This document shows, piece after piece, positions 19,112-41,666 of a stretch of DNA of 64,000 nucleotides. Both the position numbers and the translations under genes were made by a program. Source of the DNA: Rhodospirillaceae bacterium (GTDB lineage Bacteria; Pseudomonadota; Alphaproteobacteria; UBA7985); NCBI GenBank assembly GCA_038141425.1, contig JAYQIC010000003.1:151175-215174 (forward strand), given 5' to 3'. The notes beneath the pieces were generated by a model. It searched no databases. It was not told the DNA's origin and saw only the letters and a program-made list of their open reading frames with translations. Each line of letters begins with the position of its first letter. Positions within the stretch are counted from its first letter, which is position 1.

Positions 19112-19143
19112 GGGTTGTACCCTTCGCCCACCGGGAGCCTACG

Positions 19144-19184: not shown

Positions 19185-19235
19185 ATATTTCGTATGGTGA
19201 TGCAAGGCACCTCCCACGTCCAGACAGGAATTAGC

Positions 19236-22248: not shown

Positions 22249-22266
22249 GGTCAGTTACTCGCTGGG

Positions 22267-23166
22267 TTAGGCGGTGGAGAGGCCGCTGGCATCCAGCACC
22301 TCGATAATGTGGTTATAGCCCATCTGACTGTATTCCATCGGTGGAGCCTTGGCCGGGTCCTGTTCGGCCTCGACCACGATCCAACCGCTGTAGTCCATGG
22401 CCTTGAGGGCCTTGCCGACGGCGTTGAAGTCGATGCAGCCATCGCCCGGGACCGTGAAGGCTCCGGCAATTACGGCATCGAGGAAGGAGCGGTTGTTGGC
22501 GCGCACGTCGGCGACCACGTCCGGGCGGATATCCTTGAAGTGCACGTGGTGCACCCGGTCGCCCCAGCGGTCCAGCGTCGCCAGCACGTCTCCGCCGCCG
22601 AACAGCAGGTGCCCGGTGTCGAAGGTCAGCTTCAGCGCCTCGGGGTCGGAGTACTCCATCAGCCAGTTCACGTCTTCCTCGGCTTCGATGATCGACCCCA
22701 TATGGTGGTGATAGGCAACGGGCATGCCCTGATCGACCGACCACTTTGCGATCTCGCTGACCCGCCGGGCATAGTCGCGGATTTCGTCGCGGGACAGGGT
22801 CGGGCGATTGTTAACCGGCGTGTTGATCTCGCCCTGCACCGTGTTCGAGCACTCGGCGTAGACGATGCAGGGGGCGTCGAGCGCCTTGAACTGCTCGACC
22901 TGTCCTTTGATGGCGGCGGTCTCATCGGCGAAGTCGAGCACGAGGCTGTGGCCCGAGCACCAGCCACCGCACAGCACGATGTCGTACTTGTCGAGGTAGG
23001 CCTTGAGCCCGTCGGTATCCTTGGGCATGCGCTGGCCGCGTTCCACGCCGGTGTAGCCGATTTCCCGGCTTTCCTGCAGCGCCTGCTCCATAGTGTACAA
23101 GGCGGTCAGCTCGGGCAGGTCGTCGTTCTGCCAGGCGATAGGGCTGATGCCGATCTTGATCGTCAT
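22267..23166 (-). CDS. iolE: Inosose dehydratase (2-keto-myo-inositol dehydratase), xylose-isomerase-like TIM barrel
   Basis: Intact 299-aa ORF. MTIKIGISPIAWQNDDLPEL and HHHMGSIIE are typical IolE features. Located between iolD and the oxidoreductase gene. Confidence 0.9.
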   Translation of the reverse strand: MTIKIGISPIAWQNDDLPELTALYTMEQALQESREIGYTGVERGQRMPKDTDGLKAYLDKYDIVLCGGWCSGHSLVLDFADETAAIKGQVEQFKALDAPCIVYAECSNTVQGEINTPVNNRPTLSRDEIRDYARRVSEIAKWSVDQGMPVAYHHHMGSIIEAEEDVNWLMEYSDPEALKLTFDTGHLLFGGGDVLATLDRWGDRVHHVHFKDIRPDVVADVRANNRSFLDAVIAGAFTVPGDGCIDFNAVGKALKAMDYSGWIVVEAEQDPAKAPPMEYSQMGYNHIIEVLDASGLSTA

Positions 23167-23194
23167 TGTCGTGATTTACCTTTTCTCAGTCGGG

Positions 23195-25061
23195 TCAGAC
23201 GCCGACGCGCTGATTGGCGCGGCCCTGTTCGTGTTCTTCTTTGGCGGCGCGGACTTGCTCGCGCGGGGAGACCTCGGCACGCCGACGTCCCACCAGCTGT
23301 CACCGCCGGTCCAGTCGTGCGACTGCACGCGGGTGGAGATCACCACCGTGCGGTCGGCACTGCGGGCCTTGGTGAAGGCCTCGCTGAGTTCGGCGATGGT
23401 ATCGACGTCGTAGACGAGCGCCCCCATCGACGCGGCGTGGGCGGCGAAGTCCGGCATGAACGGCTCGACGCCTTCGCCCAGACGGCAATCCTTGATCAGG
23501 TTGTTGAAGCTCTCGCCGCCCTTGAAATTCTGCAGGCGGTTGATGACCGCGTAGCCACCGTTATCGCAGACCACGACGATCATCTTGTGACCCGAAAGCA
23601 CCGAGCTGTAGAGGTCCGAGTTCATCATCATGTACGAGCCATCGCCGACGAAGACGATCAGCTCGCCATCACCGGTTCTGGTTTCGGCGTGGGCCATGGC
23701 CGCGCCCCAGCCGCCGCTGATCTCGTAGCCCATGCATGAAAAGCCGTATTCGCAATCATAGGAGCGATGGGACTTGGCCAGCCAGCCCTTGTTCATCTCC
23801 CCGGGCAGGCCTCCGGCGGCGGTCAGCACGGAATCGTCTGACGTGCTCAGTTCGTTTACCGCGCCAACGACCTGCGCGTAGGTCGGGGTCTGGTTGTTCG
23901 GGGTTCGGCGCTCGTTCAGGTAAGCCCGCCATTCGGCCATCGCCGCCCGTGCCTGCGCCATGCGGGCGGCGGGCGCCGACCAGTCACCCATGGCGGCGTC
24001 GAGCTCACTGAGGCAGGCCAGCGCATCGCCGACCACGGGCAGCGACCGGTGCTTGTGCGCATCGAAGGCCGCCGTATTGATGTTGATGAAGCGCACGTTC
24101 TCGTCCTGGAAGCAGGTCCACGAGCCGGTGGTGAAATCCTGCAGCCGGGTTCCGAGCAGCAGCACGACATCAGCGTCCTGCGCCAGCGCGTTACCCGCGC
24201 TTGAACCGGTGGGGCCGGTCAGGCCGATGCCGTGTTCGTGGCTGTCGAGGACCGAGGTCTTGCCAGCGGTGGTCTCGGCCACCGGAATACCGCGCCGGGC
24301 GGCAAAGTCATTGAGCAGGGCTTCAGCGCCGCTGTACAGCGTGCCGCCCCGGCGATGATCAGCGGGCGCTGGGCCGTTTTCAGGGCTGCGGCTGCGGCTC
24401 CGATCTGGGCTTCGTCGGCGCGCTGTCGCGGTACCTGCCAGACCCGGGTCTCGAAGAACGCGGCCGGGAAATCGTGCGCCTGCGCTTGAATATCCTGCGG
24501 CAGACCGACGAAAGCCGGGCCGCGGGTCGCCGGATCGAGCATGGTCTGCAGCGCCTGGGGCAGGGAGGCCATCAGCTGTTCGGGGTGGGTGATCCGGTCC
24601 CAGTACCGCACCACTGGCTTGAAGCAGTCGTTGACGGTCATCGACGGCTCGCCGAAGTGCTCGACCTGCTGCAACACAGGGTCGGGGCGGCGGTTCTGGA
24701 AGGTATCGCCGGAGAGGATCAGCAGCGGCAGACGGTTGGCCATGGCCACACCGGCAGCCGTAACCATATTCGTTGCGCCCGGACCGACCGAGGAGGTGGC
24801 GACCATGATCCGTCGTCCCCGTTTGGCCTTGGCGTAGGCAACGCCGGCGAGCGCCATGCCCTGCTCATTCTGTCCCCGCCAGGTCGGCAGCTGGTCCTGC
24901 ACCCGTTCCAGCGCTTCGGCGAGGCAGGTGACATTGCCGTGCCCGAAAATGCCAAACACGCCCGCGAACACGGGTTCAGTGGTGCCGTCGTCGTGGGCGA
25001 CGTGCTGGGCGCACATCCATTTAACGAGGGCCTGGGCGGTGGTCAGACGTTCGGTGGTCAT
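23195..25061 (-). CDS. iolD: 3D-(3,5/4)-trihydroxycyclohexane-1,2-dione acylhydrolase (ThDP-dependent), frame broken near 23275 and near 24345
   Basis: ORFs 24219-25061 and 23176-24282 plus a short 3' segment join into ~620 aa. ThDP motif GDGSYMMMNSDL..VVCDNGGYAVI. Confidence 0.85.
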
Positions 25062-26406: not shown

Positions 26407-27560
26407 ATGACGTCCGTTGATGAGCGCATCCGCAAAACCACTCTACTAGAATCAGCGTTGCGCCGCCCGGAACTGGGCTCGGTCTTCGGCCTGTTTGCCG
26501 TTGTTATCGCCTTCATGCTGATGACCGGTCCGATCAATGCCGGTCTGGGTGAAAAGAACACATTTGCCGACATGTGGGTCCGCTCGGTCGGGGTCCAGTC
26601 GTGGGTAGAACTCGCGGCCTATGTCGGCATCCTCGCCATCGCCGCAGCCATGCTGATGATCTCGGGTGAATTTGACCTCAGCATCGGCGCAAACGTTGCG
26701 CTGGGCGGGCATACCTTTGCGATGCTGATGATGTCGCCCGACCCCATGCCGATCTGGCTGTGCATCTTTGCCACCTTCGGATTCATGATGTTTGTGGGGT
26801 TTGTCACAGGCATGCTGGTGGTCTCAACCGGGCTGCCGAGCTTCATCGTGACGCTGGGGTTCTGGTTCGCCAACCGCGGCTTTGCCAACTACCTCGCGTT
26901 CCGCAACCATGACACCTCGCGGCTGGACATCAAGCCGATGCTGGAGGAGAGGAACGTCCTTGTCGACGGGGCGGTGGTGAAAATGCCCGACCCCACCAAG
27001 ATCGACGATATCTTTGCCTTCAAGAACGGTTTTTTCGGCTGGACCGGACAGATCGACCTGCCGGGCCTGCAGCCGTTTCAGTTGTATTTCAATGCCGAGT
27101 TCTACTACTTCATCATCTTCGCCATCGTCGCGGTCTACATCCTCAATTTCACCCGTATCGGAAACTGGATTTTCGCCGCTGGTGGTGACCCTGTTGCCGC
27201 CCGCGCGGTCGGTGTTCCCGTGGCGCGGGTCAAGGTCGGCCTGTTCATGACCTCGGCCTTTGCTGCCGGGTTCCTCGGGGTGATCTTCACGCTGCAGTCG
27301 GGTGTGTCCGAGCCGCTGGCCGGCGACTTCCGCGAGCTGCACGCTATCGCCGCCGCCGTGATCGGGGCTGTGCGCTGACCGGGGGCTATGGCTCGGTGGT
27401 CGGGGCCGTGTTCGGCGCCTTCATCTTTGCCATCGTCAGTCGGGGCATCAACTTCGTGCCGTTCATCGACAACAACCTGTTCCGCGTGATCCTCGGCCTG
27501 ATGCTGCTGGGTGCGGCCATGCTCAACCAACTGCTGCGCAACCGCGTGGTCAAGGGCTAG
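26407..27560 (+). CDS. ABC sugar transporter permease (RbsC/BPD_transp_2 type), one frame break near 27364 (G run)
   Basis: ORF 26407-27378 plus the next frame (LTGGYGSVVGAVFGAFIFAIVSRG...VVKG, TAG at 27558-27560). Confidence 0.8.
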
Positions 27561-27572
27561 GGGGGCGACGTC

Positions 27573-28363
27573 ATGACTGCTGACAAGCAAACGGCGAAGA
27601 CGCCGACCATCGAAATCCGGGGGCTGGGCAAGTTCTTCGGTAACATCATCGCGCTCCAGGACGTGTCCTTTGAGGTCTACAAGGGCGAGGTGACGGCGCT
27701 GCTGGGGGACAACGGCGCGGGTAAATCCACGCTGATCAAGACCCTCAGCGGGGTCTACCGCGCCGATGAGGGCGAGATTGCCATCGACGGCAAGCCGGTG
27801 AGCTTTTCCTCACCGCGCGGGGCTGCTGCAGCCGGGATCGGGACCGTGTATCAGGATCTGGCGCTGCAGCCACTGATGAGCGTGTCGCGCAACTTCTTCC
27901 TCGGCCGCGAGCTGAGCAATGCGATGGGCTTCCTCGATTTCAAGCAGATGGACGCCATCACGCGCGAGGAAATGGCCAAAATCGGCATCGATGTCGCCGA
28001 CCCCAGCCAGCCGATCGGGACCATGTCCGGTGGCCAGCGGCAAACGCTTGCCATTGCCCGCGCCATCTACTTCGGCGCCAAGATCCTGATCCTCGACGAG
28101 CCGACTTCGGCGCTGGGGCAGAAGCAGCAGCTGGAGGTGCTTCGCACCATCAAGCGGGTGCGTGACCGCGGCGACCTCGCCATCGTCTTCATCACCCACA
28201 ACGACCTGCATGCCAAGCTGATCGGTGACCGCTTTGCCTTCCTCAACCGGGGAAAGGTCATCGCCAGCGGTGGTCGGGATGACATCGACATGGATAACAT
28301 CCGTGCGCTCATGGCGGTGGGGCAGAGCTCGCTGACCTTTCACGCGAGTTTGCGCAGGGCTAA
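27573..28363 (+). CDS. ABC transporter ATP-binding protein (single NBD), one frame break near 28315; inferred stop TAA at 28361-28363
   Basis: Walker A GDNGAGKST, signature MSGGQRQTLAIAR, Walker B ILILDEPTSALG. The ORF-track read-through to 28451 fuses it artificially to the next gene. Confidence 0.8.
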
Positions 28364-28391
28364 GCCAAACAACCGGGTAGAGAGCAGATCC

Positions 28392-29247
28392 ATGTCAAAC
28401 GCACCGCTTCTGGTTCGCCCCGTGGACCGCACGGGCAGGTTCACGGACTGACGCCCGCGAACCTGAAAGATCGTTGCCCGAACTGGGGCTACGTCGGGTT
28501 TGAGCTGCACCGGCTTGCGGCGGGTGAAACCGTGCAGGTGCGAACCGACGCCGAAGAGCATCTGCTGGTGGTGATCGAAGGCGGCATGACGCTGAAGATC
28601 GACGACAGCGACTTTGGTGTCGTTGGCAAGCGCAGGGATATCTTCAGCCGCGAGAAGGGCTACGCCGCCTATATCCCCGGCGGTGGGCACGACTGGCAGC
28701 TGCGGGCGGAAACCGCGCTCGAAGTGGCCGTGTGCAAGGCGCCGTGGAAGGGCGGCAAGCCACCCCGTGCGGTTGATCGAACCGGACGCCGAGCCGCTGG
28801 AAGCGCGCGGTAAAGGGCGCCAACACCCGCTATGTCAACGCGATCATGATGGAGGACCGGGACTGGGCTGACAGCCTGCTGGTCACCGAGGTCTGGACGC
28901 CGAGCGGTAACTGGTCGAGCTATCCCAGTCATAAGCACGACACCGATGCCTTTCCCGATGAGACTTATCTCGAAGAAACCTACTACCACCGGCTCAACCC
29001 CGGTGATCTCGCCTGGGGCTACCAGCGCGTCTACAACGACGATCTGAGCCTGAACGAGAACATGGCGCTCCACGACCGCGATCTGGTGCTGGTGCCCGAA
29101 GGCTATCATCCCTGCGGCGCGCCCTACGGCTTTGACATGTACTACCTCAATGTCATGGCCGGGCCGATGCGCAAGTGGCGCTTCACCAACGACCCGCGCT
29201 CCGAGCACATCTTCTACCGCGACGGCGGTCGCAAGCCCGGCGAGTAG
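28392..29247 (+). CDS. iolB: Second 5-deoxy-glucuronate isomerase (IolB) paralog, frame broken about three times (near 28445, 28780, 28815)
   Basis: Fragments give NWGYVGFELHRL, LLVVIEGG, WSSYPSHKHD, ETYYHRL and GYHPCGAPYGFDMYYLNVMAGP, parallel to the intact IolB at 15411-16250. Confidence 0.75.
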
Positions 29248-29305
29248 GCGCTGAGGCCCGGCACGCGACGCCGGCTGTCCAGTCAGACAAGGGACACGCA
29301 AGACA

Positions 29306-30391
29306 ATGATGAACACCGACCGACTTTCCCCGCTGATCTCGATCTGGCAGCCTTCAAGGCGCTGATCGACACGGAGCAACCCAAGCCCGCGCTCGCGGAC
29401 CGGGTCGAGCGGGGAATTCCGGTCTACGAGGCAGCCGCGCTGGAGGACCGTCTCGAAGACGGGCCGGGTCGCGCGGAAATGTTGGACGAGTGGGCCGACT
29501 GCCTGATGAACGGCGCTGGTGCCTTCGCCATCGCCGGAGCAACGCCGGACGGCAGCGTCATCGACGAGGCTTCGACCGTGCTCTTTGACCTGATCGCTGC
29601 CGAGAAAGCCGGAACCGGCGGGGGTGGGGACCACTTTGCCGCCGCCGGGCTCAATGACCGTCTCTGGAACAGCCTCGAAAAGCACGCGCTCGCCGCGCCG
29701 GAGAGCTTCGCCCGCTACTACGCCAATCCATGGATTGCCGCGGCCTCGGAAGCCTGGCTCGGCCCACGCTATCAGATGACAGCGCAGGTTAATCTGGTGC
29801 ACCCCGGCGGACAGCCGCAGACGGCTCACCGCGACTATCACCTCGGCTTCATGCAGCAGGGGCAGGCGGCCAAGTTCCCGTTGCACGCCCACCTGCTGAC
29901 CGCAGCACTGACGCTGCAGCGCGCCATCGCCCACGTCGATATTCCGATCGAAGCCGGGCCGACCAAACTGCTGCCGCACAGCCAGAAGTACGAGCTGGGC
30001 TATCTTGCCTACCACGAACAGTCGTTCCGGGACGTGTTCGAAGAGCGCTTTGTGCAGGTCGCACTGAACAAGGGCGACCTGCTCTGGTTCAATCCCGCAA
30101 CCTTCCACGCTGCCGGTGAAAACCGGACCCCTGACGTGGAGCGGCTGGTTAACCTGTTCCAGGTTTCTTCGGCCTTCGGTCGGCCGATGGAGACAGTCGA
30201 CCGCAGCGCCATGCTGGCGGCTGTCGAACCTGTGCTGAGCAAGGTCGGCCTGAGCGCGGTGGAGCAGCGGGCGCTGGTGGCGTCCACGGCCGAGGGCTAC
30301 GCGTTTCCCGCTCAACCTCGATACCAACCCACCGGTTGGCGGGCTGGCGCCCCAGACCGATCAGGAGCGGCTGCGGGCCGAGCTTGGATAG
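29306..30391 (+). CDS. Phytanoyl-CoA dioxygenase (PhyH)-family Fe(II)/2-oxoglutarate-type oxygenase, frame broken near 29335 and near 30307
   Basis: ORF 29479-30435 core with QTAHRDYH and ATFHAAGENRT motifs. The N-terminus MMNTDRL and the C-terminus ...QERLRAELG (TAG 30389-30391) are in other frames. Confidence 0.65.
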
Positions 30392-30480
30392 CCAGTCCCA
30401 TCTGGCTGCGATGGTCAGTTTTGATGATTGAGTGACGGCGTGATAATGATTAGTTCCTAATGTATGAAGGAGCTAAGTCC

Positions 30481-31185
30481 ATGAGGTTCATCATCATTCT
30501 TGCCGTCATTCTGGTTGTCGGCGCGACTGCCGGGTTGGTCGGCTATTTTGGTCCCAACAACGCCGTTCAGAGCGCCGAGGCGCTGGTCGACGATTCACTG
30601 AGCCGCCTTCCGCTCGATGGTCAGAGCGGCAGCAAGCATACCATCGAAGAACACTGCGGGCTCGATGCCAATGGCACAGCCTGGGCTGACGCGACGGGTC
30701 ATGTAACCATTGTGCAGACCGGCGCGACCAGCCAGGTCGATATCCGGCTCGAAAACGCGCGCCCGGACACCTACTTCACCGCGTGGCTTCGGCTCAAGGG
30801 CAGTGGTTTCGGCGGTAGCCCGCTGACCGGCGGCGGCGCGACGCCGCTCTCGCCCCAGACCGATCTGGATACGCTGATCAGTTACAGCCCGTTTGGCGAG
30901 AACAGTGCGGGCAGCGACCAGCTTTCCAACGGCTTCCGCACCGATGCTAAGGGGGCGGGCAGCCTGAGCGCATCGCTCGACTTTCCGATCATCGGCGGCA
31001 GCTACAATTTCGCCGTGGCGACACTGGAAACGCCGCAAGGTCCTGGCGTACCGGTGGCGATTGCCAACCCGATGCTGCCTGGACATGGCGGTCCGTTCCT
31101 GATCCGCGTGGTCTCGCACTGCAGCGATGATGTCGGCCATGGCCTGTCGCCCGGTAACCGTGAAGCCTGGTTCCAGTTCCCCTGA
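30481..31185 (+). CDS. Hypothetical membrane-anchored or secreted protein (no family recognised)
   Basis: ATG at 30481, 7 nt after a perfect AAGGAG. N-terminal hydrophobic helix MRFIIILAVILVVGATAGLVGYF, then a ~210-aa soluble, Gly/Ser/Thr-rich region that looks beta-rich. Confidence 0.6.
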   Translation: MRFIIILAVILVVGATAGLVGYFGPNNAVQSAEALVDDSLSRLPLDGQSGSKHTIEEHCGLDANGTAWADATGHVTIVQTGATSQVDIRLENARPDTYFTAWLRLKGSGFGGSPLTGGGATPLSPQTDLDTLISYSPFGENSAGSDQLSNGFRTDAKGAGSLSASLDFPIIGGSYNFAVATLETPQGPGVPVAIANPMLPGHGGPFLIRVVSHCSDDVGHGLSPGNREAWFQFP

Positions 31186-31289
31186 TCTGAACCGGTTTGA
31201 CCCCTTAACCTTTCCGCAACCTGCCATCGGCTCGCTCAGACTAAGGATCTAAAGCTTTTGACCACAGAAAGTTTGAGCGAGCAGACCTT

Positions 31290-34200
31290 GTGCGGGCGGC
31301 CCTGGAAAGTTTGTTCTCCGGCGATCAGCGCGCCTCTGCTCATTCGCTGGCGGCTCAGGCCCGGTTTGAGACGGTGGGCGAGGGGCAGGTTCTCATGACC
31401 GAGGGCGCGGCGGCAGATGACCTGTTCGTGCTCTGCGCCGGGCGTTTGCATGTCTATGCCCGTGATGGCAGCGGCGCGCTGGGGCTGGTGGCGTCGATTG
31501 AGCAGCCCGGACAGGTGGTGGGTGAGCAAGCCTTCATCGACGATCGCAAGTTTCGCAACGCCACCCTGATTGCGCTCCAGAGTGGCCGGGTTGCGCGCAT
31601 TCCCGGTGATGCGTTCCGGGAGCATCTGGCCCGGGATCAGGCAGCGCTGGCGCGGCTCTCGGCCGTCGGCGGACGGCAGTTGGAGCATCGCCTGAGTGCA
31701 CTGGCGCTCGAACTCGATGACAGTTTGGGTGCTGCACTCACCCAGTCCGCCCCAGAGCCCGGCAGTTTGAGGCCGGAGAGAGCCTGTTCATCGCCGGGGA
31801 ACCAGCGCGCCAAGCCTATCTGATCGTGAGCGGACAGATCGGCCTGACCAATCCTCACAATGGCAAGACCGAAGCCCGGCTCGGGCGCGGGCTGACGCTG
31901 GGGGTCGATGCAGTGATATCCGGGGGCGAGCATCCGCTCAACGCCGTGGCGCTGGAACCAACGGAAGTTGTGGCGCTGTCCGATGCTGCGATTGAAGCGC
32001 TGTCGGACCAGACGACTGCGGACGCAACCCCGGGAGGCGGTCTCGCGCTGGGGCAGGGTATTCAGACATCGTCGACCCATGTCGCCCTCTCTTCGACCAG
32101 CCGAGATCTGGGCGGGGCCTGCATCACGACCGATTTCCTGGCGCCCGCAGGGGGCGTTGTCCGGGTCAAGCACTACCCTGAGCGGGGGCAAACTTACGCA
32201 CTGATCAAAGGGGCCGACGTTGCCGGCGCGCGGGTGGTTGCGGCGCCGGCGGGCGACCGGCTGCTTACGCTCGACCCCGACACGGATGAGGTCCGGGGGC
32301 TGTCTGCGCCCTCGGATTGGACCGATCTGCCCCGGGCCATTGATCTGCTGTTGCAGGGCCAGCAGCTCAGCGCCATCCAGCAGGAGGCCTTCTCGCAGCA
32401 TGGTCGACTGCTGGTGGGCGATCATGCCGACGGTGAGGGCAGCTTGAGCGGCATGGTCTGTTCGTGCCGTGCGGTGACTGCGATCCAGCTGCATGACATG
32501 GCAGCGGAGGGCGCTTCGGTCGAAGACATGGTCGCGCGCACCGGCGCAGGAACGGTCTGCGGGGGTGCAGGGACATGCTGCCGCTGTTTACCCAGACTGC
32601 GCAAGAAACGCTGTGCTGGATCGAGCCGGAAACCCTGCCGGGTGGGGTGGTGCGTGTCCGGCTCAACATGGGAAATGGAGCCAGCGGTGCCGCGCGGTCA
32701 GTATTTGAAACGGCGAAAGTCGGCGATTTTGTCCGGGTCAGCGCCATGGTCAAAGGACAGTGGCTACAGCGCCCCTTCACACTGACGGATTGGGATGAGC
32801 GCAGTCTTGAGATTACGGTAAAGCTCGAAGAACCCGGCCAGTATTCTGACTGGCTGCGCGCCGCGGCGCCCGGTGATCTGTTCAAAGTCGGGACGCCCGA
32901 AGGGCACGCCTATGGCGTCGAAGGCGACGCCCGGCCGCTGGTGTTCATTGTTGCCGGGATTGGGGTCACCCCTGCGCTGGCGGCCGTGCGCAAGCTCGCC
33001 GGTACGCGCGCCCTCGATGTCCGCTACGTGTACCGGGATCCGGCCGAAGCCACGGGCTTGCCGCAGCTGGAGTCTCTGGCGCGGGCCGGTGATATCAGTC
33101 TGGCCACCTTTGCTACCGGGACCAGCGGCGAAGCGCGTGGACAGCGCCCTTCTGTCGAGGCCTTGATCGACGGCATCCGCACCATGGGACCAGCGCAAGT
33201 GGTGGTATGCGGGCCTGAGGGCTTCAATCACCCGCTGAGGGAGGCGCTGGTGTCCGTCGCCGACGCCGAAGTCTTCGTCGAGGACTTTCAGGAAACCATC
33301 GGCCGGGGTGTGAACACGGGTGCTGCCGCGGCACACGCGATCCGGTCGCCCGGCTTTATCCCGGATCGGGCGCGGGAGAGCCTGTTTACCCGCAAGGCAC
33401 CGGGCACCATGGCTGAAGAGGCTGAGGACTTCCTGCGTGAATTCTACCGCAGCGAACGCCCTGACGATGATCCCACAGAGCGCCTCGGCACGGTGATGGA
33501 GGCCATCGGTAGCCAGGGAAGCTGGCGCAAGACGGCTGACGAATTGGCCTTTGCTGCGCAGCTGGCGTGGCGCAATGCACCGCGCTGCATCGGACGGCTT
33601 TACTGGAAGGGCCTGCACCTGCGCGACGGCCGCGATCTGCAGACTGCCGACGATGTCGCCCGGGCGCTGTTCGAGCACATGCGCTTTGCCTTTAACGGTG
33701 GGGCCATCCGCCCCGCGATCACGGTTTTCAACCATGGCGGGCCCGAGGGCAGGCGCCGCGGATCTGGAACTCGCAGCTGCAGCTCTACGCGGGGTACCGT
33801 CTGCGCACCGGCCAGCAAGTCGGTGATCCGGCACAGAATGCCCTGACCGAAGCCATCATGGCACTGGGCTGGGAGCCATCGGGAAGCCAATTCGAGATCC
33901 TGCCACTGGTAATTCAGGGCAGCGACGGGCATCCGCAGCTGTTCGAATTGCCAGAAGATGTCCGCTACGAAGTGCCATTGATTCACCCGGGTTATCCTGC
34001 ATTCAGCGCCATGAAGCTACGCTGGCACGCGGTTCCCTTTGTCGCTGACCTGCGACTGGATGCAGGCGGCATCACCTATCCGTTTGCGCCCTTCAATGGC
34101 TGGTTCATGAATACGGAAATTGCAGCAAGAAATCTGATCGATCATAACCGCTACAATCTGCTTGAAGCGGTGGCCGAAGCCATGGGGTTGGATCAGCGCA

Positions 34201-34508
34201 ACGAGCGCGACCTGTGGCGGGACAAGGCCCTGATCATGCTCAATGAGGCCGTAATCGCTTCCTATGATGACGCCGGTGTGCGGCTGGCCGATCATCACAA
34301 CGCGACCCTCGATTTCGTTGAGTTCTGCCGCGCGGAGCAGCGCGCCGGGCGCGAGGTTTTTGGCGAATGGATGTGGTTGGTGCCGCCGGTTTCAGCGTCT
34401 CTGTCGCCCCTCTACCAGCAGCCCTTTGCCAATATCTCGGTCAAACCCGCCTATGCGCGTCAGCCCGCTATCTGGACTTCAAAGCCCCCTGCCGCGGATC
34501 ATCCGTGA
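31290..34508 (+). CDS. nos: Multidomain nitric oxide synthase: CAP_ED - CAP_ED(degenerate) - unassigned ~150-170 aa - BFD-like [2Fe-2S] - FNR-type FAD/NAD(P) reductase - NOS oxygenase domain. Frame broken three times at homopolymers (31750-31753, 32561-32565, 33747-33749)
   Basis: NOS hallmarks: AWRNAPRCIGRLYWKGL (Cys codon 33586-33588), PRIWNSQLQLYAGY, FNGWFMNTEIAARNL, ADHHNATLDFVEF, VPPVSAS. FNR motifs: RPFTLT, GIGVTPALA, VVVCGPEGF. BFD motif: CSCR..(30 aa)..CGGC. First cNMP cassette: GEQAFIDDRKFRNATLIA. Confidence 0.8.
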
Positions 34509-35089
34509 CCGCGATCGAGGCTGCGCGAATGACCCCGCGTGTGGGGGCTCTCGCCCGAAAAACTGCGCCTCAGTTGTCCTGAAGGACGCCCATGGAGCAG
34601 TTCGAGGAACCAGGCCTCGTGCTCGATCTCTTCCTTGAGGATGTCCTTCGCAAGATCGTAGGTCACAGGGTCCTTGCCCAGCGTCATGGTGCAGAGCCGG
34701 TTCCAGTTCACGACGGCGCCCTGCTCAGCCTTCAGGCACATCTTCAGGATATCCTCCACCTCGATGGGGCCATTCGGAAGCTGGAGGAATTCACAGCCTG
34801 ACATGCCGATGAAGTCCTGCGCATCCCGGGGCAGCGTACCGCCGAGTTCGAAGATGCGCTGGATACAGGACTCATAGTGGCTGAGGTCCTCCATCCGTGC
34901 GTCTTCTATGATGCCCTTCAAGTGCTCGCCTTCCGGTCCTGTGCAGTGGGCACGGATGTTGGTGAGGTAGTAGTAGGCGGTGAACTCGACTGATGCGTTC
35001 TTGATCAGCGTATTCAGGATTTCGTCAACATCGGCACCGTTCTTCCGAAGCACGTTAATGCCGACCACTTGGTAATCATTGTTGCTCAT
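34499..35089 (-). CDS. Ferritin-like / Dps-like (DPSL-type) di-iron protein
   Basis: From MSNNDYQVVG at 35089. Four-helix-bundle ferritin-like pattern with E..H and EEIEHE motifs (FTAYYYL, EDLSHYE, LKAEQGAV, KEEIEHEAWF). Convergent with the nos gene and overlaps its 3' end by 10 nt. Confidence 0.65.
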   Translation of the reverse strand: MSNNDYQVVGINVLRKNGADVDEILNTLIKNASVEFTAYYYLTNIRAHCTGPEGEHLKGIIEDARMEDLSHYESCIQRIFELGGTLPRDAQDFIGMSGCEFLQLPNGPIEVEDILKMCLKAEQGAVVNWNRLCTMTLGKDPVTYDLAKDILKEEIEHEAWFLELLHGRPSGQLRRSFSGESPHTRGHSRSLDRGHG

Positions 35090-35170
35090 GGACTTTCCTG
35101 CGTTGCGGATGTTTGCGGCGTGCCGAACGGCGCGGAGCGTAAGCACGCGTGTGGTTGATTGAAGGCTGGG

Positions 35171-36045
35171 TCAGGGTGAGCTCTGCCGAGCCAGTGGTAG
35201 GGTCAGGCAGGTCGCGCCGCCTTCCCCGGGAAGCTGATCTCTGCGCCGACGTAGGTCTGAACCCGGCAGCCGGCCTGCTCCAACAGAGCCTTGGTTTTTG
35301 CCAGGCCGTCCAGCATGACCACGTGCCGGGGACCGATCGCCAGCACGTTGCAGGCCATAAGTTCATATTCGTCTTCGGGCACCTGCAACATCCGGATTCC
35401 GCGTGCTTCAAGCAGGTCAGCGAAATCGTCGGGGATGGACGGCGCGTGCACGAGTGCGAGGTCGCGGTCCAAGGGCGAGATGATCATCATCAGGTGGAAG
35501 ACATCGTCCGGGTGCCGGGGCTCTGGCAGGGTCACCGCGTGGACGTTAATCGATGCACCCAGCATGCGCCTGAGCTGGTCAATGCCGGCGTCGTTGGTCC
35601 GAACCCCGCGACCGACGGCCATGGTCGTTGCGTCGAGCCAGATGACGTCGCCCCCTCGACCAGCCCTGGTGGTTCGATCTGTCCAAGAACACCGAGGCCG
35701 GTTTGCTCCTCGATCAATCTTGCGTTGATCGACGGCTCGGCCTGGCGGCTGGCGCGCCCCATTTGGCACAGAACCAGCCCCTTGGGCGTTACCACGGTAG
35801 CGTCGCGGGTATAGACGGCATCGAGGGTCAGGGAAGCGGGGCCGGAGAGGTCGACCACTTCCGCACCGTTATCCACGAGAATGGTCGCGCAAACGGGCGT
35901 GTTCTGCGCAGGCGCGGTCAAAGTCCGGCGCGCCCCGGTAGCGAAGGGACTGCCATTGCTGACCAACTTTGTCACCGGACTGGTAGGCGTGCTCGGGGGA
36001 CCGGACTGCGACTTGCGTCAGCAAACTAAACTCGTCTTCAATCAT
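35171..36045 (-). CDS. Guanidino-group-modifying enzyme superfamily protein (DDAH / amidinotransferase / arginine-deiminase-like, DDAH-sized), frame broken about three times (near 35215, 35650, 35890)
   Basis: Fragments give LDAVYTRD, GGDVIWLD..MAVGRGVRTNDAGIDQL, DDVFHLMMIISPLD and ACNVLAIGPRHVVM. A C-terminal GEGGATCLTLPL with the expected catalytic Cys appears once the last frame break is repaired. Confidence 0.65.
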
Positions 36046-36312
36046 CTCCGTACCTCTGGGACGCTGACGCTTGGTCAAGGCAATAACATTAGTTTAAATG
36101 AATGAACCATAGAAGCGCAACGTGTCTTGGGGCGTTCGCCTTTGCGCATGGCAATAGGGGCTTGCAACGTTCCTTTCTGGGATCGGCCGTTCTGCTGGGC
36201 CGCGAGGTGCGGGCTGGCGAACCGGCAATAATGTTTTTTCCCCGTCGCTAGACCTTGCATCTTCAGCGATTCCTGATCAGAGTTGAGCCTTGGGAAAACA
36301 GGAGAGTTTCTT

Positions 36313-37857
36313 ATGCTACGTTTCATTCTCTTAACCGCTACAGCCCTGAGCCTGACCGTCACGGCAGCCTCGGCTGAGACCATCCGCTGGGCGCGCGCCG
36401 GTGACTCGCTGACGCTTGATCCGCACTCTCAGAACGAGGGCCCAACCCACGCTCTGGCACACCAGATTTATGATCCGCTGCTGCAGCGCGACATGTCTGG
36501 CGCAATCATCCCTGCGCTGGCGACCGAGTGGGCGACCCTGCCGGGTAACCCGAATGTATGGCGCTTCAAGCTGCGTGAAGGCGTGACCTTCCACGACGGC
36601 GCTGCCTTTGATTCCGAGGACGTGGTGTTCTCGCTGAACCGCGCTAAGGCCGATACCTCCGAGATGCAGGAACTGCTTGCTTCGGTGATCGATATTCGCG
36701 CCGTTGACGCCTACACCGTTGATCTTGAGACCGAGGGTGCAAACCCGCTGATGATCAACAACCTGACCAACACCTTCATGATGGACAAGGGCTGGGCCGA
36801 GGCCAATGACGTCGTCAAGCCGCTTGACCACAATGCGGGTGAGACGACCTATGCGACCTCGAACACCAACGGTACCGGTGCGTTCATGCTCGTCAGCCGT
36901 GCAGTCGACGAAAAGACTGTCCTGAAGGCGAACCCGAACTACTGGGGCGCAGACATTTACCCGAACCAGGTGAGCGAAATCATCTACACCCCGATTCAGT
37001 CCTCCGCGACCCGCGTTGCGGCCCTGCTGTCGGGTGAAGTTGATATCATCCAGGACGTTCCGGTTCAGGATCTGGGCCGGGTGGCTGACACCGCTGGCCT
37101 GAAGGTCGTGACCGCGGCGCAAAACCGCGTGATCTTCTTTGGCGTTGATAACGCTGAAGGCCCGACCTCTGACGTCCGCGTTCGTCAGGCGATGAACATG
37201 GCCATCAACCGCGATGCCATCAAAGCCATCGTGATGCGTGACCAGTCCGACCCAACGGGTGTCATCATGCCTCCGTTCGTAAACGGCTGGACCGACGCCC
37301 TGAACGAGTTCCCTTCGTACGACATCGATGCTGCTAAGGCGCTGATGGCTGACGCAGGGTACGCGGACGGCTTCGACATCACGCTGAACTGCCCGAACGA
37401 TCGCTACATCAACGACGAAGCCATCTGTCAGGCTGCTGTCGGCATGATGGGTCAGATTGGCATCAACGTGACCCTTGATGCGCGTCCGAAAGCGCAGCAC
37501 TTCCCATTCATCAAGGAAGGCAACTCTGACTTCTGGATGCTGGGTTGGGGCGTACCGACCTTCGATTCCCACTACATCTTCAACTACCTGCTTCACACGA
37601 ACATCGGCAGCCGCGGTTCCTGGAACCCGACCGGTTTCAGCAACGCAGAAGTTGACGAGATGATTGTCAGCCTGGAATCCGAGACCGATCTCGCGGCCCG
37701 GGATGCGACCATCGCCAAGATCTGGGAGATCGTCCAGGCCGAGCAGGTTCACCTGCCGATCCACAACCAGGTTCTGAACTGGGGCATGAGCGATGGCATC
37801 AATTTTGATGTTCAGCCTGAAGACCAGCCACACTTCCAGTTCCTGACCTTCAACTAA
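36313..37857 (+). CDS. ABC transporter substrate-binding protein, family 5 (peptide/opine/nickel type)
   Basis: Intact ORF. ATG at 36313 after GGAGAG. Signal peptide MLRFILLTATALSLTVTAASA. SBP_bac_5 pattern. Followed by DppBCDF-like genes. Confidence 0.9.
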   Translation: MLRFILLTATALSLTVTAASAETIRWARAGDSLTLDPHSQNEGPTHALAHQIYDPLLQRDMSGAIIPALATEWATLPGNPNVWRFKLREGVTFHDGAAFDSEDVVFSLNRAKADTSEMQELLASVIDIRAVDAYTVDLETEGANPLMINNLTNTFMMDKGWAEANDVVKPLDHNAGETTYATSNTNGTGAFMLVSRAVDEKTVLKANPNYWGADIYPNQVSEIIYTPIQSSATRVAALLSGEVDIIQDVPVQDLGRVADTAGLKVVTAAQNRVIFFGVDNAEGPTSDVRVRQAMNMAINRDAIKAIVMRDQSDPTGVIMPPFVNGWTDALNEFPSYDIDAAKALMADAGYADGFDITLNCPNDRYINDEAICQAAVGMMGQIGINVTLDARPKAQHFPFIKEGNSDFWMLGWGVPTFDSHYIFNYLLHTNIGSRGSWNPTGFSNAEVDEMIVSLESETDLAARDATIAKIWEIVQAEQVHLPIHNQVLNWGMSDGINFDVQPEDQPHFQFLTFN

Positions 37858-38980: not shown

Positions 38981-39889
38981 ATGATGCGACGCTTCTTCCA
39001 ATCCGACTTCTTCTACGCTTTCACGCGCTCCCCGCTGGCCATGGTGTCGCTGCTCGTGGTGGCGCTGATGGTCCTGAGTGCGGTCTTCGCCAACTTCATC
39101 GCACCGACCAACCCCTTTGACCCGGCGAGCCTGAACCTGATGAACGGCTTTACCCCACCCATGGAAGCCAACATGTTCACCGGTGAAAAGTTCCTGCTGG
39201 GAACCGATGACCAGGGCCGGGACTTGTTCTCTGCTATCCTCTACGGGCTGCGGGTATCGCTGTTCGTTGGCATGATGGCGGTCGGACTGGCCATGGTACT
39301 CGGCGTATTGCTGGGGTTGATCGCCGGTTACGTGGGCGGTTGGCTGGATACGCTGATCATGCGTCTGGCCGACATTCAGATGACCTTCCCCTCGATCCTG
39401 ATCGCCATGCTGATCTTCGGCGTTGCCCGCGGCTTGCTGCCCCCGGAGCTGCGCGAGGAGATGGCGATTACCGTACTGATCCTGTCCATCGGCCTCTCCG
39501 AATGGGTCAATTTTGCCCGGACGGTGCGGGGGGCGACCATGGTCGAGAAGGAAAAGGAATACGTTGCCGCCGCGCGGTTGATCGGGCTCAACCGCTGGCA
39601 GATCATGCTGCGCCACATCCTGCCCAACGTGCTCGGGCCGGTGCTGGTCATCGCCACGATCACGCTGGCGCTGGCGATTATCGCGGAGGCGACGCTGTCC
39701 TTCCTCGGGGTCGGCGCACCGCGGACCGAGCCGAGCCTGGGCACGCTGATTCGGATCGGACAGGACTTCCTGTTCTCCGGTGAGTGGTGGATCCTGCTGT
39801 TCCCTGCGCTGACGTTGCTGGCGCTGGCGCTGTCGGTCAACCTGTTCGGTGACTGGCTGCGCGACACCCTCAATCCGAGGCTGCGCTGA
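38981..39889 (+). CDS. ABC transporter permease (DppC/OppC type)
   Basis: Intact 302-aa ORF. EAA loop (ARTVRGATMVEKEKEYVAAARLIGLN). Confidence 0.9.
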   Translation: MMRRFFQSDFFYAFTRSPLAMVSLLVVALMVLSAVFANFIAPTNPFDPASLNLMNGFTPPMEANMFTGEKFLLGTDDQGRDLFSAILYGLRVSLFVGMMAVGLAMVLGVLLGLIAGYVGGWLDTLIMRLADIQMTFPSILIAMLIFGVARGLLPPELREEMAITVLILSIGLSEWVNFARTVRGATMVEKEKEYVAAARLIGLNRWQIMLRHILPNVLGPVLVIATITLALAIIAEATLSFLGVGAPRTEPSLGTLIRIGQDFLFSGEWWILLFPALTLLALALSVNLFGDWLRDTLNPRLR

Positions 39890-40854
39890 TGACTATGAAA
39901 ACTCTGCTTGAGCTCAAGAATATCGAGGTCGCGTTCAAGACCCGCCACGGCGTGCTGAAGGCGGTGGATGACCTGTCCCTGACGGTGAAAGAAGGCGAAA
40001 TCCTCGGGATTGTGGGCGAGTCCGGCGCGGGCAAGTCCATGACCGGTGCTGCCATCATCGGCCTGATCGACCCCCCGGGGCGGTTATCAGCGGGTGAAAT
40101 CTGGTTTGGTGGTGAGCGCGTGGATGAGCACCCTGAGCGTCTCCGCGGCCGTGAAATCTCGATGATCTTTCAGGACCCGCTGACCAGCCTTAACCCGCTG
40201 CGCACCGTGGGTGACCAGTTGGTCGAAACCATCCTTGCGCACATGCCCGTTTCCAAAGAAGAGGCCGAGAAGCGCGCCCTCGACGGCCTCGCTACGAAGT
40301 CGGCATCGACCCCGAGCGCATCAACGCCTACCCGCACGCCTTCTCCGGGGGATGCGACAGCGGGTGGTGATCGCGCTGGCGCTGGCAACCGAGCCCAAGC
40401 TGGTGATCGCCGACGAGCCGACCACGGCGCTTGACGTGTCGGTGCAGGCGCAGGTGCTGGACCTGCTCAAGCGGCTGTGCCGGGAACGGGGCACGTCGGT
40501 CATTCTCATCACCCACGACATGGGCGTGATCGCCCAGACAAGCGACCGGATCGCGGTCATGTACGCCGGACGCCTCGCCGAGATCGGCGGCACCCGGGAG
40601 GTTCTGACCAACCCCAGCACCCCTATACGCAGGGGCTTATGGCCTCGACCCCGAGCGTCGATGCCAAGTCCTTCGGCGCGGCCCTGTTCCAGATCCCCGG
40701 CTCAATGCCCAAGCTCGATGCGCTGCCTTCGGGCTGCGCCTTCAACCCGCGCTGCCAGTACGCCCACGACCGCTGCCGGCAGGAGCGACCATCGGTGCAG
40801 GCGGGCCGGGCTGCGTGCTGGCTGCTGGAGACCGAGCAGGAGGGCGCCGCATGA
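39889..40854 (+). CDS. ABC transporter ATP-binding protein (DppD/OppD type), frame broken near 40295 and near 40612
   Basis: Walker A GESGAGKS, signature FSGGMRQRVVIA, Walker B IADEPTTALD and a C-terminal oligopeptide-type extension (HPYTQGL...CAFNPRC), recovered from three frames. Confidence 0.8.
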
Positions 40855-41666
40855 GTTTCGTTGTTGCCAGCGACCTGACCCGTACCTTTGACCTGTCCGA
40901 CCCGTGGATCGTGCGGGCGCTGACCCTGCGCCCCAAGCGGATCCTCAAGGCCGTCGACGCCGTGAACTTCCAGATCGAGCGCGGTTCCACCTACGCGCTG
41001 GTCGGCGAGTCCGGTTCTGGCAAGTCTACGATCGCCAACATGGTTGTCGGCCTGCTGCAGCCCTCGTCAGGGTCGATCACCATCGATGGCCGCAACCTCG
41101 CTGACGCCTCGCTCAATCGCCGGGAGCAGCAGGCCCAGCGACGCCGCATCCAGATGGTGTTCCAGAGCCCCTACGCCAGCCTCAACCCGCGCTGGAAAGT
41201 CGGCGATATCCTTGGCGAGCCGATCCGGGCCTTCGGTCTGATCGACGGCGCTAAGGCACAGCAGACGCGCATCGCCGAACTGCTGGAGCAGGTCGGGCTG
41301 AGCGCCAGCGACGCCAGCAAGTATCCGCACGAGTTCTCCGGGGGCCAGCGCCAGCGGATTTCCATCGCCCGCGCCCTTTCCAGCCAGCCGGAGGTGATCA
41401 TCTGCGATGAGCCGACTTCGGCGCTGGACGTGTCGGTGCAGGCGCAGGTGCTGAACCTGCTCAAGGCACTGCAGAAGGATTTCGGTCTGACCTATCTATT
41501 CATCACTCACGATCTGGCGGTGGTTTCGACCATGGCCAACCGGATCGGGGTTCTGAATCAGGGGGTGCTGGTCGAGGAGCAGGATACGGCCGACCTGTTT
41601 TCCAAGCCGCAGCAGGACTACACCAAGATGCTGCTTTCCGCCGCGCCGAAAATCGAGTTTTCTTAA
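40851..41666 (+). CDS. ABC transporter ATP-binding protein (DppF/OppF type)
   Basis: The ATG at 40851 overlaps the previous stop (ATGA). Walker A GESGSGKST, signature FSGGQRQRISIARA, Walker B ICDEPTSALD. Confidence 0.9.
   Translation: MSFVVASDLTRTFDLSDPWIVRALTLRPKRILKAVDAVNFQIERGSTYALVGESGSGKSTIANMVVGLLQPSSGSITIDGRNLADASLNRREQQAQRRRIQMVFQSPYASLNPRWKVGDILGEPIRAFGLIDGAKAQQTRIAELLEQVGLSASDASKYPHEFSGGQRQRISIARALSSQPEVIICDEPTSALDVSVQAQVLNLLKALQKDFGLTYLFITHDLAVVSTMANRIGVLNQGVLVEEQDTADLFSKPQQDYTKMLLSAAPKIEFS

Follow-up and report, generated by a model that had tools for sequence, protein, structure and literature searches.

A 2022 review names only two types of bacterial nitric oxide synthase (NOS). 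The stand-alone bacterial enzymes carry neither a fused reductase nor a sensor, and rely on separate cellular reductases (PMC4436077). The NOS of Sorangium cellulosum, scNOS, is catalytically self-sufficient (PMC4436077; Agapie et al. 2009 cited there), with a BFD-like [2Fe-2S] domain followed by an FNR-like FAD/NAD(P)H module and a C-terminal oxygenase domain; the statements on scNOS made here are drawn from PMC4436077 and PMC3701330. A second enzyme with the scNOS architecture, SiliNOS of the marine alphaproteobacterium Silicibacter/Ruegeria sp. TrichCH4B, combines an N-terminal 2Fe-2S/FAD/NAD(P)H reductase with a C-terminal oxygenase domain that forms NO in single-turnover assays (PMC4436077); what the initial annotation of the present locus had stated on the Sorangium and TrichCH4B enzymes agrees with that source. 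The inputs that switch bacterial NOS on are essentially unknown, as PMC4436077 says for scNOS. A cyclic-nucleotide domain is mentioned zero times in PMC4436077, and literature searches brought up no paper in which a cyclic-nucleotide-binding domain is linked to bacterial NOS.

The locus described here lies in a 64,000-nt stretch of a Rhodospirillaceae contig, the whole of which is called the window, and codes for a protein with the same reductase and oxygenase modules as scNOS, preceded by two cyclic nucleotide (cNMP)-binding domains. The explanation that best accounts for the observations, with a probability of roughly 0.6, is that of a single intact gene for a self-sufficient NOS that would be gated by a cyclic nucleotide, with the frame breaks in the deposited sequence being homopolymer under-calls. 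The gene and its domains, in the order that the initial annotation had given, are as follows:

31258..34508, + strand: complete NOS fusion gene, from a TTG start codon to a TGA stop codon, by base-by-base alignment to the reference contig L001
31374..31634, + strand: cNMP-binding domain A (CNB-A), Pfam PF00027, 1.1e-14
31760..32008, + strand: cNMP-binding domain B (CNB-B), Pfam PF00027, 3.8e-13
32063..32410, + strand: middle domain, approximately residues 270-385, no Pfam match
32453..32592, + strand: BFD-like [2Fe-2S] domain, Pfam PF04324; Cys402, Cys404, Cys435, Cys438
32608..33288, + strand: FNR-like FAD/NAD(P)H module with RPFTLT, GIGVTPALA and CGPEGF (R-x-[YF]-T, G-x-G-x-x-P and C-G-P motifs)
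33406..34481, + strand: NOS oxygenase domain, Pfam PF02898; Cys778 heme-thiolate, Glu955 substrate

One gene and its frame breaks

As deposited, the gene is spread over four + strand open reading frames (31290-31823, 31826-32785, 32575-33846 and 33858-34508, in frames 0, 2, 1 and 0). L001, which is 97% identical to the window and carries the NOS gene intact, places four single-base breaks in the gene:

31286..31287, + strand: frame break 1, CC against CCC in L001; 5' of the start taken in the initial annotation and missed there
31750..31753, + strand: frame break 2, C4 against C5 in L001; repair gives ...QSAPRARQFEAG...
32561..32565, + strand: frame break 3, G5 against G6 in L001; within the [2Fe-2S] motif, Cys 3/Cys 4 (TVCGG|CRD)
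33747..33749, + strand: frame break 4, G3 against G4 in L001; within the NOS oxygenase domain (GPEG|QAPRIWN)

The three 1-nt homopolymer breaks originally placed inside 31290-34508 are exactly the three that this alignment finds there. The proposal of one frame of about 1070 codons after three repairs thus stands as to the single gene, but not in its extent: with four bases put back, the gene has 3255 nt and codes for 1084 aa with 0 internal stops, from a TTG at 31258 (MTTESLSEQTLVRAALE...) that is also the start in L001 and has an AAGGA about 10 nt 5' of it. The repaired protein is 97.5% identical to P0001, with 27 residues differing, and ends about 8 residues past the oxygenase domain. Comparison with L001 and with orthologues, which are intact single reading frames of 1059-1092 aa at 54-97% identity, bears out the single frame. 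A set of separate adjacent genes is ruled out because each of the four junctions is a 1-nt deletion in a homopolymer and because the orthologues have one uninterrupted reading frame.

Were the gene a true pseudogene in the source organism, with real frameshifts and a working enzyme only in relatives, this would account for four frameshifts within 3.25 kb of the sequence as given and for two changes at otherwise strongly conserved positions: Phe in place of the FAD-motif Tyr508, which is Tyr in 109/109 relatives, and Tyr at position 530, found in 0/109. These changes (Y508F and F530Y) may be either base-call errors or real. However, each break consists of one base missing from a C or G run relative to L001, and the damage extends well beyond this gene: the 10-kb alignment to L001 contains 20 single-base indels, 14 of them in coding sequence, where they hit six genes (the partial first gene, ABC_tran, KduI, PhyH, NOS and DDAH), and at least three genes elsewhere in the window are broken likewise (ABC_tran 39889-40891, an iolD-like TPP enzyme 23176-25061 and DctM 51140-54345). 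Real frameshifts would therefore require pseudogenes across the whole region. Pseudogenisation specific to the NOS gene is ruled out, since near and distant genes carry indels alike, and the stop-free repaired frame, with a dN/dS of 0.22 against L001, speaks against decay in general; a pseudogene is thus very improbable. With single bases missing from C or G runs at all four sites, neighbouring genes affected in the same way and a low dN/dS, this comparative evidence makes the breaks most likely under-calls of the assembly, and 31258-34508 most likely one gene that is intact in the living organism. Its identity as a NOS fusion and its intactness, taken jointly, can be held with high confidence.

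The oxygenase and reductase modules

The oxygenase domain had been called complete, with heme-thiolate motif and substrate Glu, and the profile searches bear this out. On the two frame pieces the NO_synthase family is matched over profile positions 4-114 (3.5e-33) and 120-361 (3e-94), with 115.5 and 316.4 bits against a PF02898 cut-off of 22.7, and the match is unbroken in the intact orthologue P0004. Both motifs quoted originally, WRNAPRCIGR and GWFMNTEIAARN, are found in the translation, Cys778 lying in the former and the substrate Glu955 in NTEIAARN. W772, R773, C778 and E955 do not vary among 109 family members, and C778 is kept in at least 90% of a wider 34-sequence set. Sequence matches in the PDB include Bacillus subtilis NOS and endothelial NOS (E ~1e-97), and the oxygenase domain of an AlphaFold2 model of P0001 (mean pLDDT 85.8) superposes on B. 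subtilis NOS with a TM-score of 0.94-0.95 and an rmsd of 1.6 A. The stand-alone B. subtilis enzyme (PDB 1m7v) thus has the same fold at about 42% identity over 356 columns. Because the match starts at residue 9 of the B. subtilis chain and the linker before the domain has no Cys pair, the sequence reads as lacking the animal-type N-terminal zinc/hook segment.

The BFD-like C-x-C...C-x-x-C motif is present after repair, its fourth Cys (VCSC...VCGGC) coming into frame only once break 3 is mended, and none of C402, C404, C435 and C438 varies among 109 family sequences. In the raw window piece Fer2_BFD stays just under its cut-off (2.5e-5, 25.0 bits against 26), but it is matched at 1.4e-7 in P0004 and detected in 33 of 34 representatives. 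Similarly, the FNR-type assignment is carried by its three motifs and by clear Pfam matches in relatives, with FAD_binding_6 at E <= 0.001 in 27/34 representatives and NAD_binding_1 in 16/34, whereas the window piece itself falls just short for FAD_binding_6 (7.5e-4, 20.2 bits against 21.1). Searches of this module with NCBIfam gave sub-threshold matches to flavohemoprotein and to ferredoxin-reductase components.

That this part of the protein belongs with the self-sufficient Sorangium type is upheld by homology: in BLASTP, residues 311-1076 of P0001 align to residues 372-1152 of P0182, one of the two Sorangium-type orthologues examined (P0182 and P0325), at 2e-129 and 35% identity. The resemblance to animal NOS, which is gated by Ca2+/calmodulin, is of another kind. 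The oxygenase domains are homologous, but the animal reductase sits C-terminal to the oxygenase instead of N-terminal to it and uses FMN and FAD in place of 2Fe-2S and FNR; flavodoxin and FAD_binding_1 have no Pfam match in the window pieces or the 34 representatives. The animal sensor is a separate calmodulin, whereas that of the window protein would be built in, so that beyond the oxygenase the likeness is a functional analogy only, in which a second-messenger element controls electron delivery from a fused reductase to heme.

Between the cNMP-binding domains and the [2Fe-2S] domain lies the stretch that had been described as free of recognisable motifs, and it remains so: over residues ~250-395 a Pfam search finds no family. 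Its model (~130 aa, mean pLDDT 85.7) predicts seven beta strands followed by two helices, and a fold search against solved structures gave nothing significant (best E 0.26, TM-score 0.38). The best fold match, a hint only, is the C-terminal domain of ferredoxin reductase/AIF-type flavoproteins. Sorangium NOS shares the C-terminal half of this middle domain, the alignment to P0182 beginning at residue 311.

The N-terminal cyclic-nucleotide-binding domains

Two CAP/PKA-type cNMP-binding domains had been proposed, the first with an intact phosphate-binding cassette (GEQAF..RNAT). CNB-A and CNB-B both match PF00027 above its gathering score (54.6 and 49.7 bits against 27.5), and only the first site is intact in the window protein. 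In CAP and PKA, the Gly-Glu and Arg-x-Ala-Thr/Ser residues of this cassette contact the ribose-phosphate moiety that 3',5'-cyclic nucleotides share. The CNB-A cassette is canonical (G89-E90...R100-N-A-T103), and its G, E and R are retained by 87-97% of the 109 family sequences, which come from several phyla (G 106/109, E 100/109, R 95/109, with T or S in 83/109). The CNB-B cassette is degenerate in the clade of the window protein, with Gly-Val for Gly-Glu and His-Pro-Leu-Asn for Arg-x-Ala-Thr (G216-V217...H226-P-L-N229), and canonical in about half of the family.

In the sister clade to which Sorangium belongs, a different module occupies this place. The first ~370 residues of Sorangium NOS carry EF-hands (Pfam EF-hand_7, 5.4e-10) where the window protein has its two CNB domains, and show no Pfam cNMP_binding match and no similarity to P0001 before residue 311. 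The reductase-NOS chassis hence occurs with at least two different N-terminal modules, both putative sensors. Conversely, the N-terminal and reductase modules occur together without the oxygenase: P0011 and P0012 share with P0001 two CNB domains, the middle domain, the BFD-like domain and the FNR module at 26% identity, stop after the latter (precomputed Pfam), and have a canonical CNB-B cassette (IGE...PRAATA), unlike the window clade. P0233 (660 aa), which aligns to residues 10-662 of P0001 only, looks by alignment extent like a third NOS-less example. From the retained CNB-A cassette, the EF-hand swap in the sister clade and these NOS-less cNMP-BFD-FNR proteins, we infer that the N-terminus would act as a second-messenger sensor.

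How far this extends to the ligand and to control of catalysis is a more tentative matter. The enzyme might be a self-sufficient NOS in which the CNB domains are no cAMP/cGMP gate, and either bind another ligand, which could be a different cyclic nucleotide or, as with some CRP/FNR relatives, no nucleotide at all, or serve in dimerisation or as a scaffold alone. The degenerate CNB-B site of the window clade would fit such a role, as would the nearest solved relatives of CNB-A, which, all at weak E-values, include CRP, a CNB-containing EAL enzyme and PycTIR proteins, the latter being effectors of cyclic-pyrimidine signalling. Likewise, a long helix predicted after CNB-A (residues 128-150 in the AlphaFold2 model of P0001) appears to resemble the dimerising C-helix of CRP-type proteins, and no cyclase, NO-sensor or H-NOX gene is present among the 30 largest window ORFs scanned. 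Yet the CNB-A residues for ribose-phosphate contact persist in ~90% of the family across several phyla, and the presence of EF-hands in place of the whole module in the sister clade favours a second-messenger sensor over a passive scaffold. A role other than a cAMP/cGMP gate is on balance unlikely. It is plausible that a cyclic nucleotide gates NO synthesis, and that NOS activity is indeed so gated would be nearly an even bet; the ligand could be a cyclic nucleotide other than cAMP or cGMP.

Distribution of the family

The fusion had been presented as something out of the ordinary, which proves overstated: it is a large, database-listed family and not a one-off. The same architecture is found in >100 protein clusters (90% identity) of 1040-1110 aa, with carriers among Planctomycetota, Cyanobium, Sericytochromatia and marine Alphaproteobacteria, the last being the group to which the SiliNOS host also belongs. 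In fact, cNMP domains are the commonest N-terminal module in reductase-fused bacterial NOS (20/34 representatives at 50% identity), and annotation pipelines already label some members, the JGI product name including 'CRP-like cAMP-binding'. The initial annotation had also considered that the architecture might be both common and already characterised; common it is, but a characterised member is absent from the literature searched. Among close relatives, a scan of genome contigs with one protein query gave four MAGs, a word-index search with the N-terminal 445 aa alone gave 3 matches, all close, and the MAG labels read Alphaproteobacteria, Rhodospirillaceae or Hyphomonadaceae.

Genomic neighbourhood

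The genes next to the NOS gene are the following:

30460..31185, + strand: upstream gene; its 241-aa product has a hydrophobic segment at the N-terminus and falls into no known family
34499..35146, - strand: convergent Dps-like ferritin-fold gene (Pfam Ferritin, 1.5e-20), its end overlapping the NOS stop by ~10 nt
35170..36045, - strand, approximate (transferred from L001): DDAH/arginine-deiminase-superfamily gene with three indels in the window

The 241-aa protein has no Pfam, NCBIfam or PDB sequence match. It is 69% identical to the product of a gene 23 nt 5' of a 54%-identical NOS in L006, and is not similar to the product of the gene 5' of the Planctomycetota-type NOS in L009. A terminator-like hairpin (30402-30418) precedes the upstream gene and none was found between it and the NOS start; the two genes are probably co-transcribed. 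A sigma-70-like promoter was not found 5' of this operon. The L001 orthologue of the Dps-like gene matches the NCBIfam 'DNA protection protein DPS' with 258.7 bits against a cut-off of 158; the Dps-like gene adjoins NOS in L008 too, and the NOS-Dps-DDAH trio recurs beside a 62%-identical NOS. Searches for tRNA and Rfam families found none in the window. In the window, which has 60-65% GC, real ORFs could not be told from shadow ORFs by GC3-based gene calling.

These neighbours allow for a physiological role apart from NO signalling, be it arginine nitrogen mobilisation, nitration or a part in oxidative-stress chemistry; the cNMP input would then report on the nutrient status. The adjoining gene of the DDAH/arginine-deiminase family acts on guanidino compounds, the Dps-like neighbour suggests management of iron or oxidative damage, the genes around NOS in the window are catabolic and transport genes, and nitrogen mobilisation has been proposed for the NOS of Synechococcus PCC 7335 (PMC6104048). 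That enzyme, however, has a fused globin/NO-dioxygenase domain, which by Pfam is found neither in the window pieces nor in the 34 representatives. Moreover, the neighbourhood is conserved only within the close clade. NOS neighbourhoods differ between phyla, so gene context does not point to a cNMP pathway. A non-signalling role is distinctly improbable; as it concerns physiology and not mechanism, it can hold alongside the main explanation, that of a cNMP-gated, self-sufficient NOS.

A possible mechanism and its implications

Under that explanation, electrons would pass from NAD(P)H to FAD, on to the [2Fe-2S] cluster and thence to heme, supporting an oxidation of arginine that yields citrulline and NO, which has been reported for scNOS. 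Dimerisation would take place via the oxygenase domain, and possibly also via the long helix after CNB-A. Binding of a 3',5'-cyclic nucleotide at the canonical CNB-A site would reposition the N-terminal module, which in turn would gate electron delivery from reductase to heme, a part comparable to calmodulin's in animal NOS and, presumably, to the one that Ca2+ and the EF-hands play in the sister clade. CNB-B would be a non-binding relay or a structural domain in the window clade, and NO output would be set by the cellular state of cAMP/cGMP.

The broadest version of this proposal is the most tentative: bacteria may run the NO-cyclic-nucleotide axis in the direction opposite to animals, with the CNB-A ligand switching electron flow, the sensor being an exchangeable cassette that responds to Ca2+ in the Sorangium clade, and the family constituting a widespread aquatic source of NO. 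On present grounds, we would place it somewhat below an even chance, and a shade under gating as such. Nevertheless, a canonical cNMP site, a complete reductase and an oxygenase on one polypeptide amount to a directly testable regulatory input, and the EF-hand sister clade offers a natural comparison of cNMP with Ca2+ on one chassis. If the proposal is true, self-sufficient NOS with exchangeable sensor cassettes would occur widely among Planctomycetota, picocyanobacteria and Alphaproteobacteria of the sea and of fresh water, and could give aquatic microbial communities a regulated biological source of NO. Uncultivated aquatic bacteria commonly carry the cNMP-NOS family, which may therefore have a bearing on NO production by microbes in oceans and lakes.

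Probable integrity of the NOS fusion gene

In the raw sequence, the NOS (nitric oxide synthase) locus at 31290-34508 (+) is read as four ORF pieces in frames 0, 2, 1 and 0, on which Pfam recovers two cNMP_binding domains (PF00027; 1.1e-14 and 3.8e-13), Fer2_BFD (PF04324; 2.5e-5), a weak FAD_binding_6 match slightly below the cut-off (7.5e-4) and an NO_synthase profile (PF02898) divided cleanly over two pieces (positions 4-114 and 120-361). All motifs quoted in the initial annotation, which had read one gene interrupted by three frame breaks, were found in the window translation. Alignment of window 27280-37287 with L001, the contig encoding the intact relative P0001, gives 97.1% identity and 20 single-base indels, a density of about 2 per kb. 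Four of the 20 lie in the NOS gene, each being one homopolymer base absent from the window, and the first is upstream of the start originally assigned.

Frame breaks in the NOS gene, window vs relative L001
31286-31287 (+): frame break 1, CC vs CCC
31750-31753 (+): frame break 2, C4 vs C5
32561-32565 (+): frame break 3, G5 vs G6
33747-33749 (+): frame break 4, G3 vs G4

The fusion starts at TTG 31258 (MTTESLSEQTL...), as it does in L001, and with the four bases restored the gene spans 3255 nt and encodes 1084 aa with zero stops, the product differing from P0001 at 27 residues. Of the remaining indels in this 10-kb alignment, ten fall within ABC_tran, KduI/iolB, PhyH and DDAH genes and the partial first gene, and frame-split genes recur elsewhere in the window, namely an ABC ATPase (39889-40891, +), an iolD-like TPP enzyme (23176-25061, -) and a DctM permease (51140-54345, +). 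Because both neighbouring and distant genes carry indels, and because dN/dS of the repaired gene against L001 is 0.22, the NOS frame breaks are, on this comparative evidence, best explained as assembly errors: we think that region-wide homopolymer indels combined with purifying selection would fit an error-prone long-read consensus rather than decay of a single gene. The identity and intactness of the fusion gene are put at a probability of about 0.9.

Apparent pseudogenes anywhere in the window are possible artefacts, as homopolymer indels break many of its genes (iolD-like TPP, ABC ATPase, DctM, KduI/iolB, PhyH and DDAH). Adjacent ORFs at 44646-45962 (+), with DAO and FAO_M, and 45988-47223 (+), with GCV_T, carry domains that usually form one polypeptide in dimethylglycine/sarcosine dehydrogenases, and the pair at 44646-47223 may be another gene split by sequence error. 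Within the NOS protein, codon 508 (32779-32781) gives Phe in the FAD motif (RPFTLT), against Tyr (RPYTLT) in 109 of 109 relatives, and codon 530 (32845-32847) gives Tyr, a residue seen there in none of the 109, of which 91 have Phe; either difference could be an error in base calling or a change specific to the strain.

Domain architecture

Domains of the repaired protein (residue numbering as in P0001)
~40-127: CNB-A, first cNMP-binding domain, canonical cassette G89-E90...R100-N-A-T103
128-150: long helix in the AlphaFold2 model
~168-250: CNB-B, second cNMP-binding domain, cassette degenerate in this protein's clade
~270-385: middle domain, seven strands and two helices, pLDDT 85.7 in a model of the window's own fragment
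C402, C404, C435, C438: BFD-like [2Fe-2S] domain, all four cysteines invariant in the family
452-678: FNR-like module with R-P-F-T, GIGVTP and CGP motifs
~40 residues: linker from FNR-like module to oxygenase, low model confidence
718-1076: NOS oxygenase domain, including Cys778 and Glu955

Of 109 full-length family members, 106 retain the G of the CNB-A cassette, 100 the E, 95 the R and 83 a T or S. In the CNB-B of the window protein's clade, Gly-Val stands for Gly-Glu and His-Pro-Leu-Asn for Arg-x-Ala-Thr; about half of the family keeps the canonical cassette, as do P0011 and P0012, relatives with no NOS domain. The middle domain has no Pfam family match, and a fold search against solved structures returned nothing significant, the best hit (E 0.26) being the C-terminal domain of ferredoxin-reductase/AIF-type flavoproteins. 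Sequence matches of the oxygenase domain to the NOS of B. subtilis and to endothelial NOS reach E about 1e-97, and its model superposes on B. subtilis NOS with a TM-score of 0.94-0.95 and an rmsd of 1.6 A. By its sequence features, the protein combines the full set of parts of a self-sufficient enzyme of the Sorangium cellulosum type (scNOS) with a predicted sensor module bearing one canonical cyclic-nucleotide site.

Gene neighbourhood

Features flanking the NOS gene
30402-30418: terminator-like hairpin preceding the upstream gene
30460-31185 (+): gene directly upstream of NOS, 241 aa, N-terminal hydrophobic segment
34499-35146 (-): Dps-like ferritin-fold gene, convergent, downstream of NOS, above the NCBIfam 'DNA protection protein DPS' cut-off
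~35170-36045 (-): DDAH/arginine-deiminase-superfamily gene, convergent, downstream of NOS

The 241-aa protein has no match in Pfam, NCBIfam or PDB sequences, and no terminator-like hairpin was found between its gene and the NOS start. It is 69% identical to the product of a gene 23 nt upstream of a 54%-identical NOS on contig L006, so that its conservation exceeds that of the NOS; it may be a NOS partner, and its gene is absent upstream of more distant NOS family members. Downstream, the trio of NOS, Dps-like and DDAH-like genes is kept in L001 and, with a 62%-identical NOS, on contig L008, and is not kept beside the Planctomycetota-type, Cyanobium-type or more distant NOS loci examined. The DDAH-like protein falls under every NCBIfam equivalog cut-off. 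By analogy, a DDAH-like gene adjoining a bacterial NOS recalls the NOS/ADMA/DDAH relationship of animals.

The remaining window genes encode myo-inositol catabolism, ABC/TRAP/TctA transporters, a two-component system, hydantoinase A/B and a dimethylglycine/sarcosine-oxidase-like enzyme. The myo-inositol cluster occupies 15411-25061 and 28417-29244 and includes an iolB-like gene, a PfkB+DUF2090 kinase, an RpiR regulator, a GFO/IDH/MocA dehydrogenase, a xylose-isomerase-like TIM barrel and a TPP enzyme; the window has two genes of the KduI/IolB family. A scan of its 30 largest ORFs revealed neither a cyclase nor an H-NOX gene, and no tRNA or Rfam match was found in the window.

Distribution and sister clades

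A search with the stitched protein recovers intact single-ORF relatives at a range of distances: P0001 (1084 aa, 97% identical, 100% coverage), P0002 to P0005 (85-89%), P0008 (62%) and P0009 (54%). With the BFD-FNR-NOS part as query, 159 clusters were obtained at E below 1e-20, and among the 120 of these listed more than 100 combine PF00027, PF04324 and PF02898 in 1040-1110 aa. Clusters of this CNB type are assigned by their sources to Planctomycetota, Cyanobium, Cyanobacteriota, Candidatus Sericytochromatia and Alphaproteobacteria MAGs, and among the product names given by JGI is 'nitric oxide synthase oxygenase domain/subunit/ferredoxin-NADP reductase/CRP-like cAMP-binding p...'. At E below 1e-30, an exhaustive search of representatives yielded 484 proteins, with end-to-end alignment in at least 15 clusters at 50% identity.

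A second group, of 1116-1184 aa, aligns to the window-type protein only from residue ~320 and includes the NOS of Sorangium cellulosum and Sorangium sp. (P0325, P0182); EF-hands were detected by Pfam in most of the eight members scanned singly. In P0177, P0182, P0186, P0191 and P0197 of this sister clade, the motifs lie at ~residues 180-290, where CNB domains would be. Sorangium P0182 shares the region of residues 311-1076 with P0001 at 35% identity and has no similarity before 311, bearing EF-hands where the window protein has CNB domains; no mention of a Ca2+-binding module in scNOS was found in the accessible literature. Among 34 representatives of reductase-fused NOS, Pfam detects cNMP_binding in 20 and EF-hands in ~6, so that most are of the CNB type.

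The sensor-reductase part also occurs on its own. P0011 and P0012 are cNMP-BFD-FNR proteins of ~700 aa that lack NOS, and P0233 (660 aa) is another apparent case from alignment extent alone; on their apparent order of domains (cNMP-cNMP-middle-BFD-FNR, ~660-707 aa, NOS absent), all three look like predicted cyclic-nucleotide-sensing reductases.

Possible gating by cyclic nucleotides

From established family properties, electrons would pass from NAD(P)H to FAD and, one at a time, to the [2Fe-2S] cluster, and thence to the heme for two-step arginine oxidation, in an enzyme dimerized via its oxygenase domain. In CAP and PKA, nucleotide binding moves the helix after the binding domain. A nucleotide at CNB-A may likewise shift the helix that follows, which would change where the N-terminal module lies with respect to the reductase or oxygenase, altering electron delivery in turn. 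Gating of NOS activity by a cyclic nucleotide has its strongest indirect support in three facts, given by the retention of the CNB-A cassette across phyla, by the presence of EF-hands, a different second-messenger sensor, in the same position of the sister clade, and by the occurrence of the sensor-reductase cassette without NOS. It is proposed tentatively, at slightly less than even odds; the nucleotide, which could be cAMP, cGMP or another, may either activate or inhibit. The reversal of the animal NO/cyclase logic, put forward in the initial annotation, is a reasonable and testable hypothesis, not a finding.

Among bacterial NOS, fusion to an N-terminal 2Fe-2S/FNR reductase has been described for Sorangium and Silicibacter sp. 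TrichCH4B (PMC4436077, PMC3701330), and a 2022 review recognises oxygenase-only and globin-type bacterial NOS alone (PMC9500659). No description of a CNB-type N-terminus on NOS was found in the searchable literature. CNB-type NOS is plentiful in public databases, where automatic annotation already labels it, and the window holds one more, error-laden copy.
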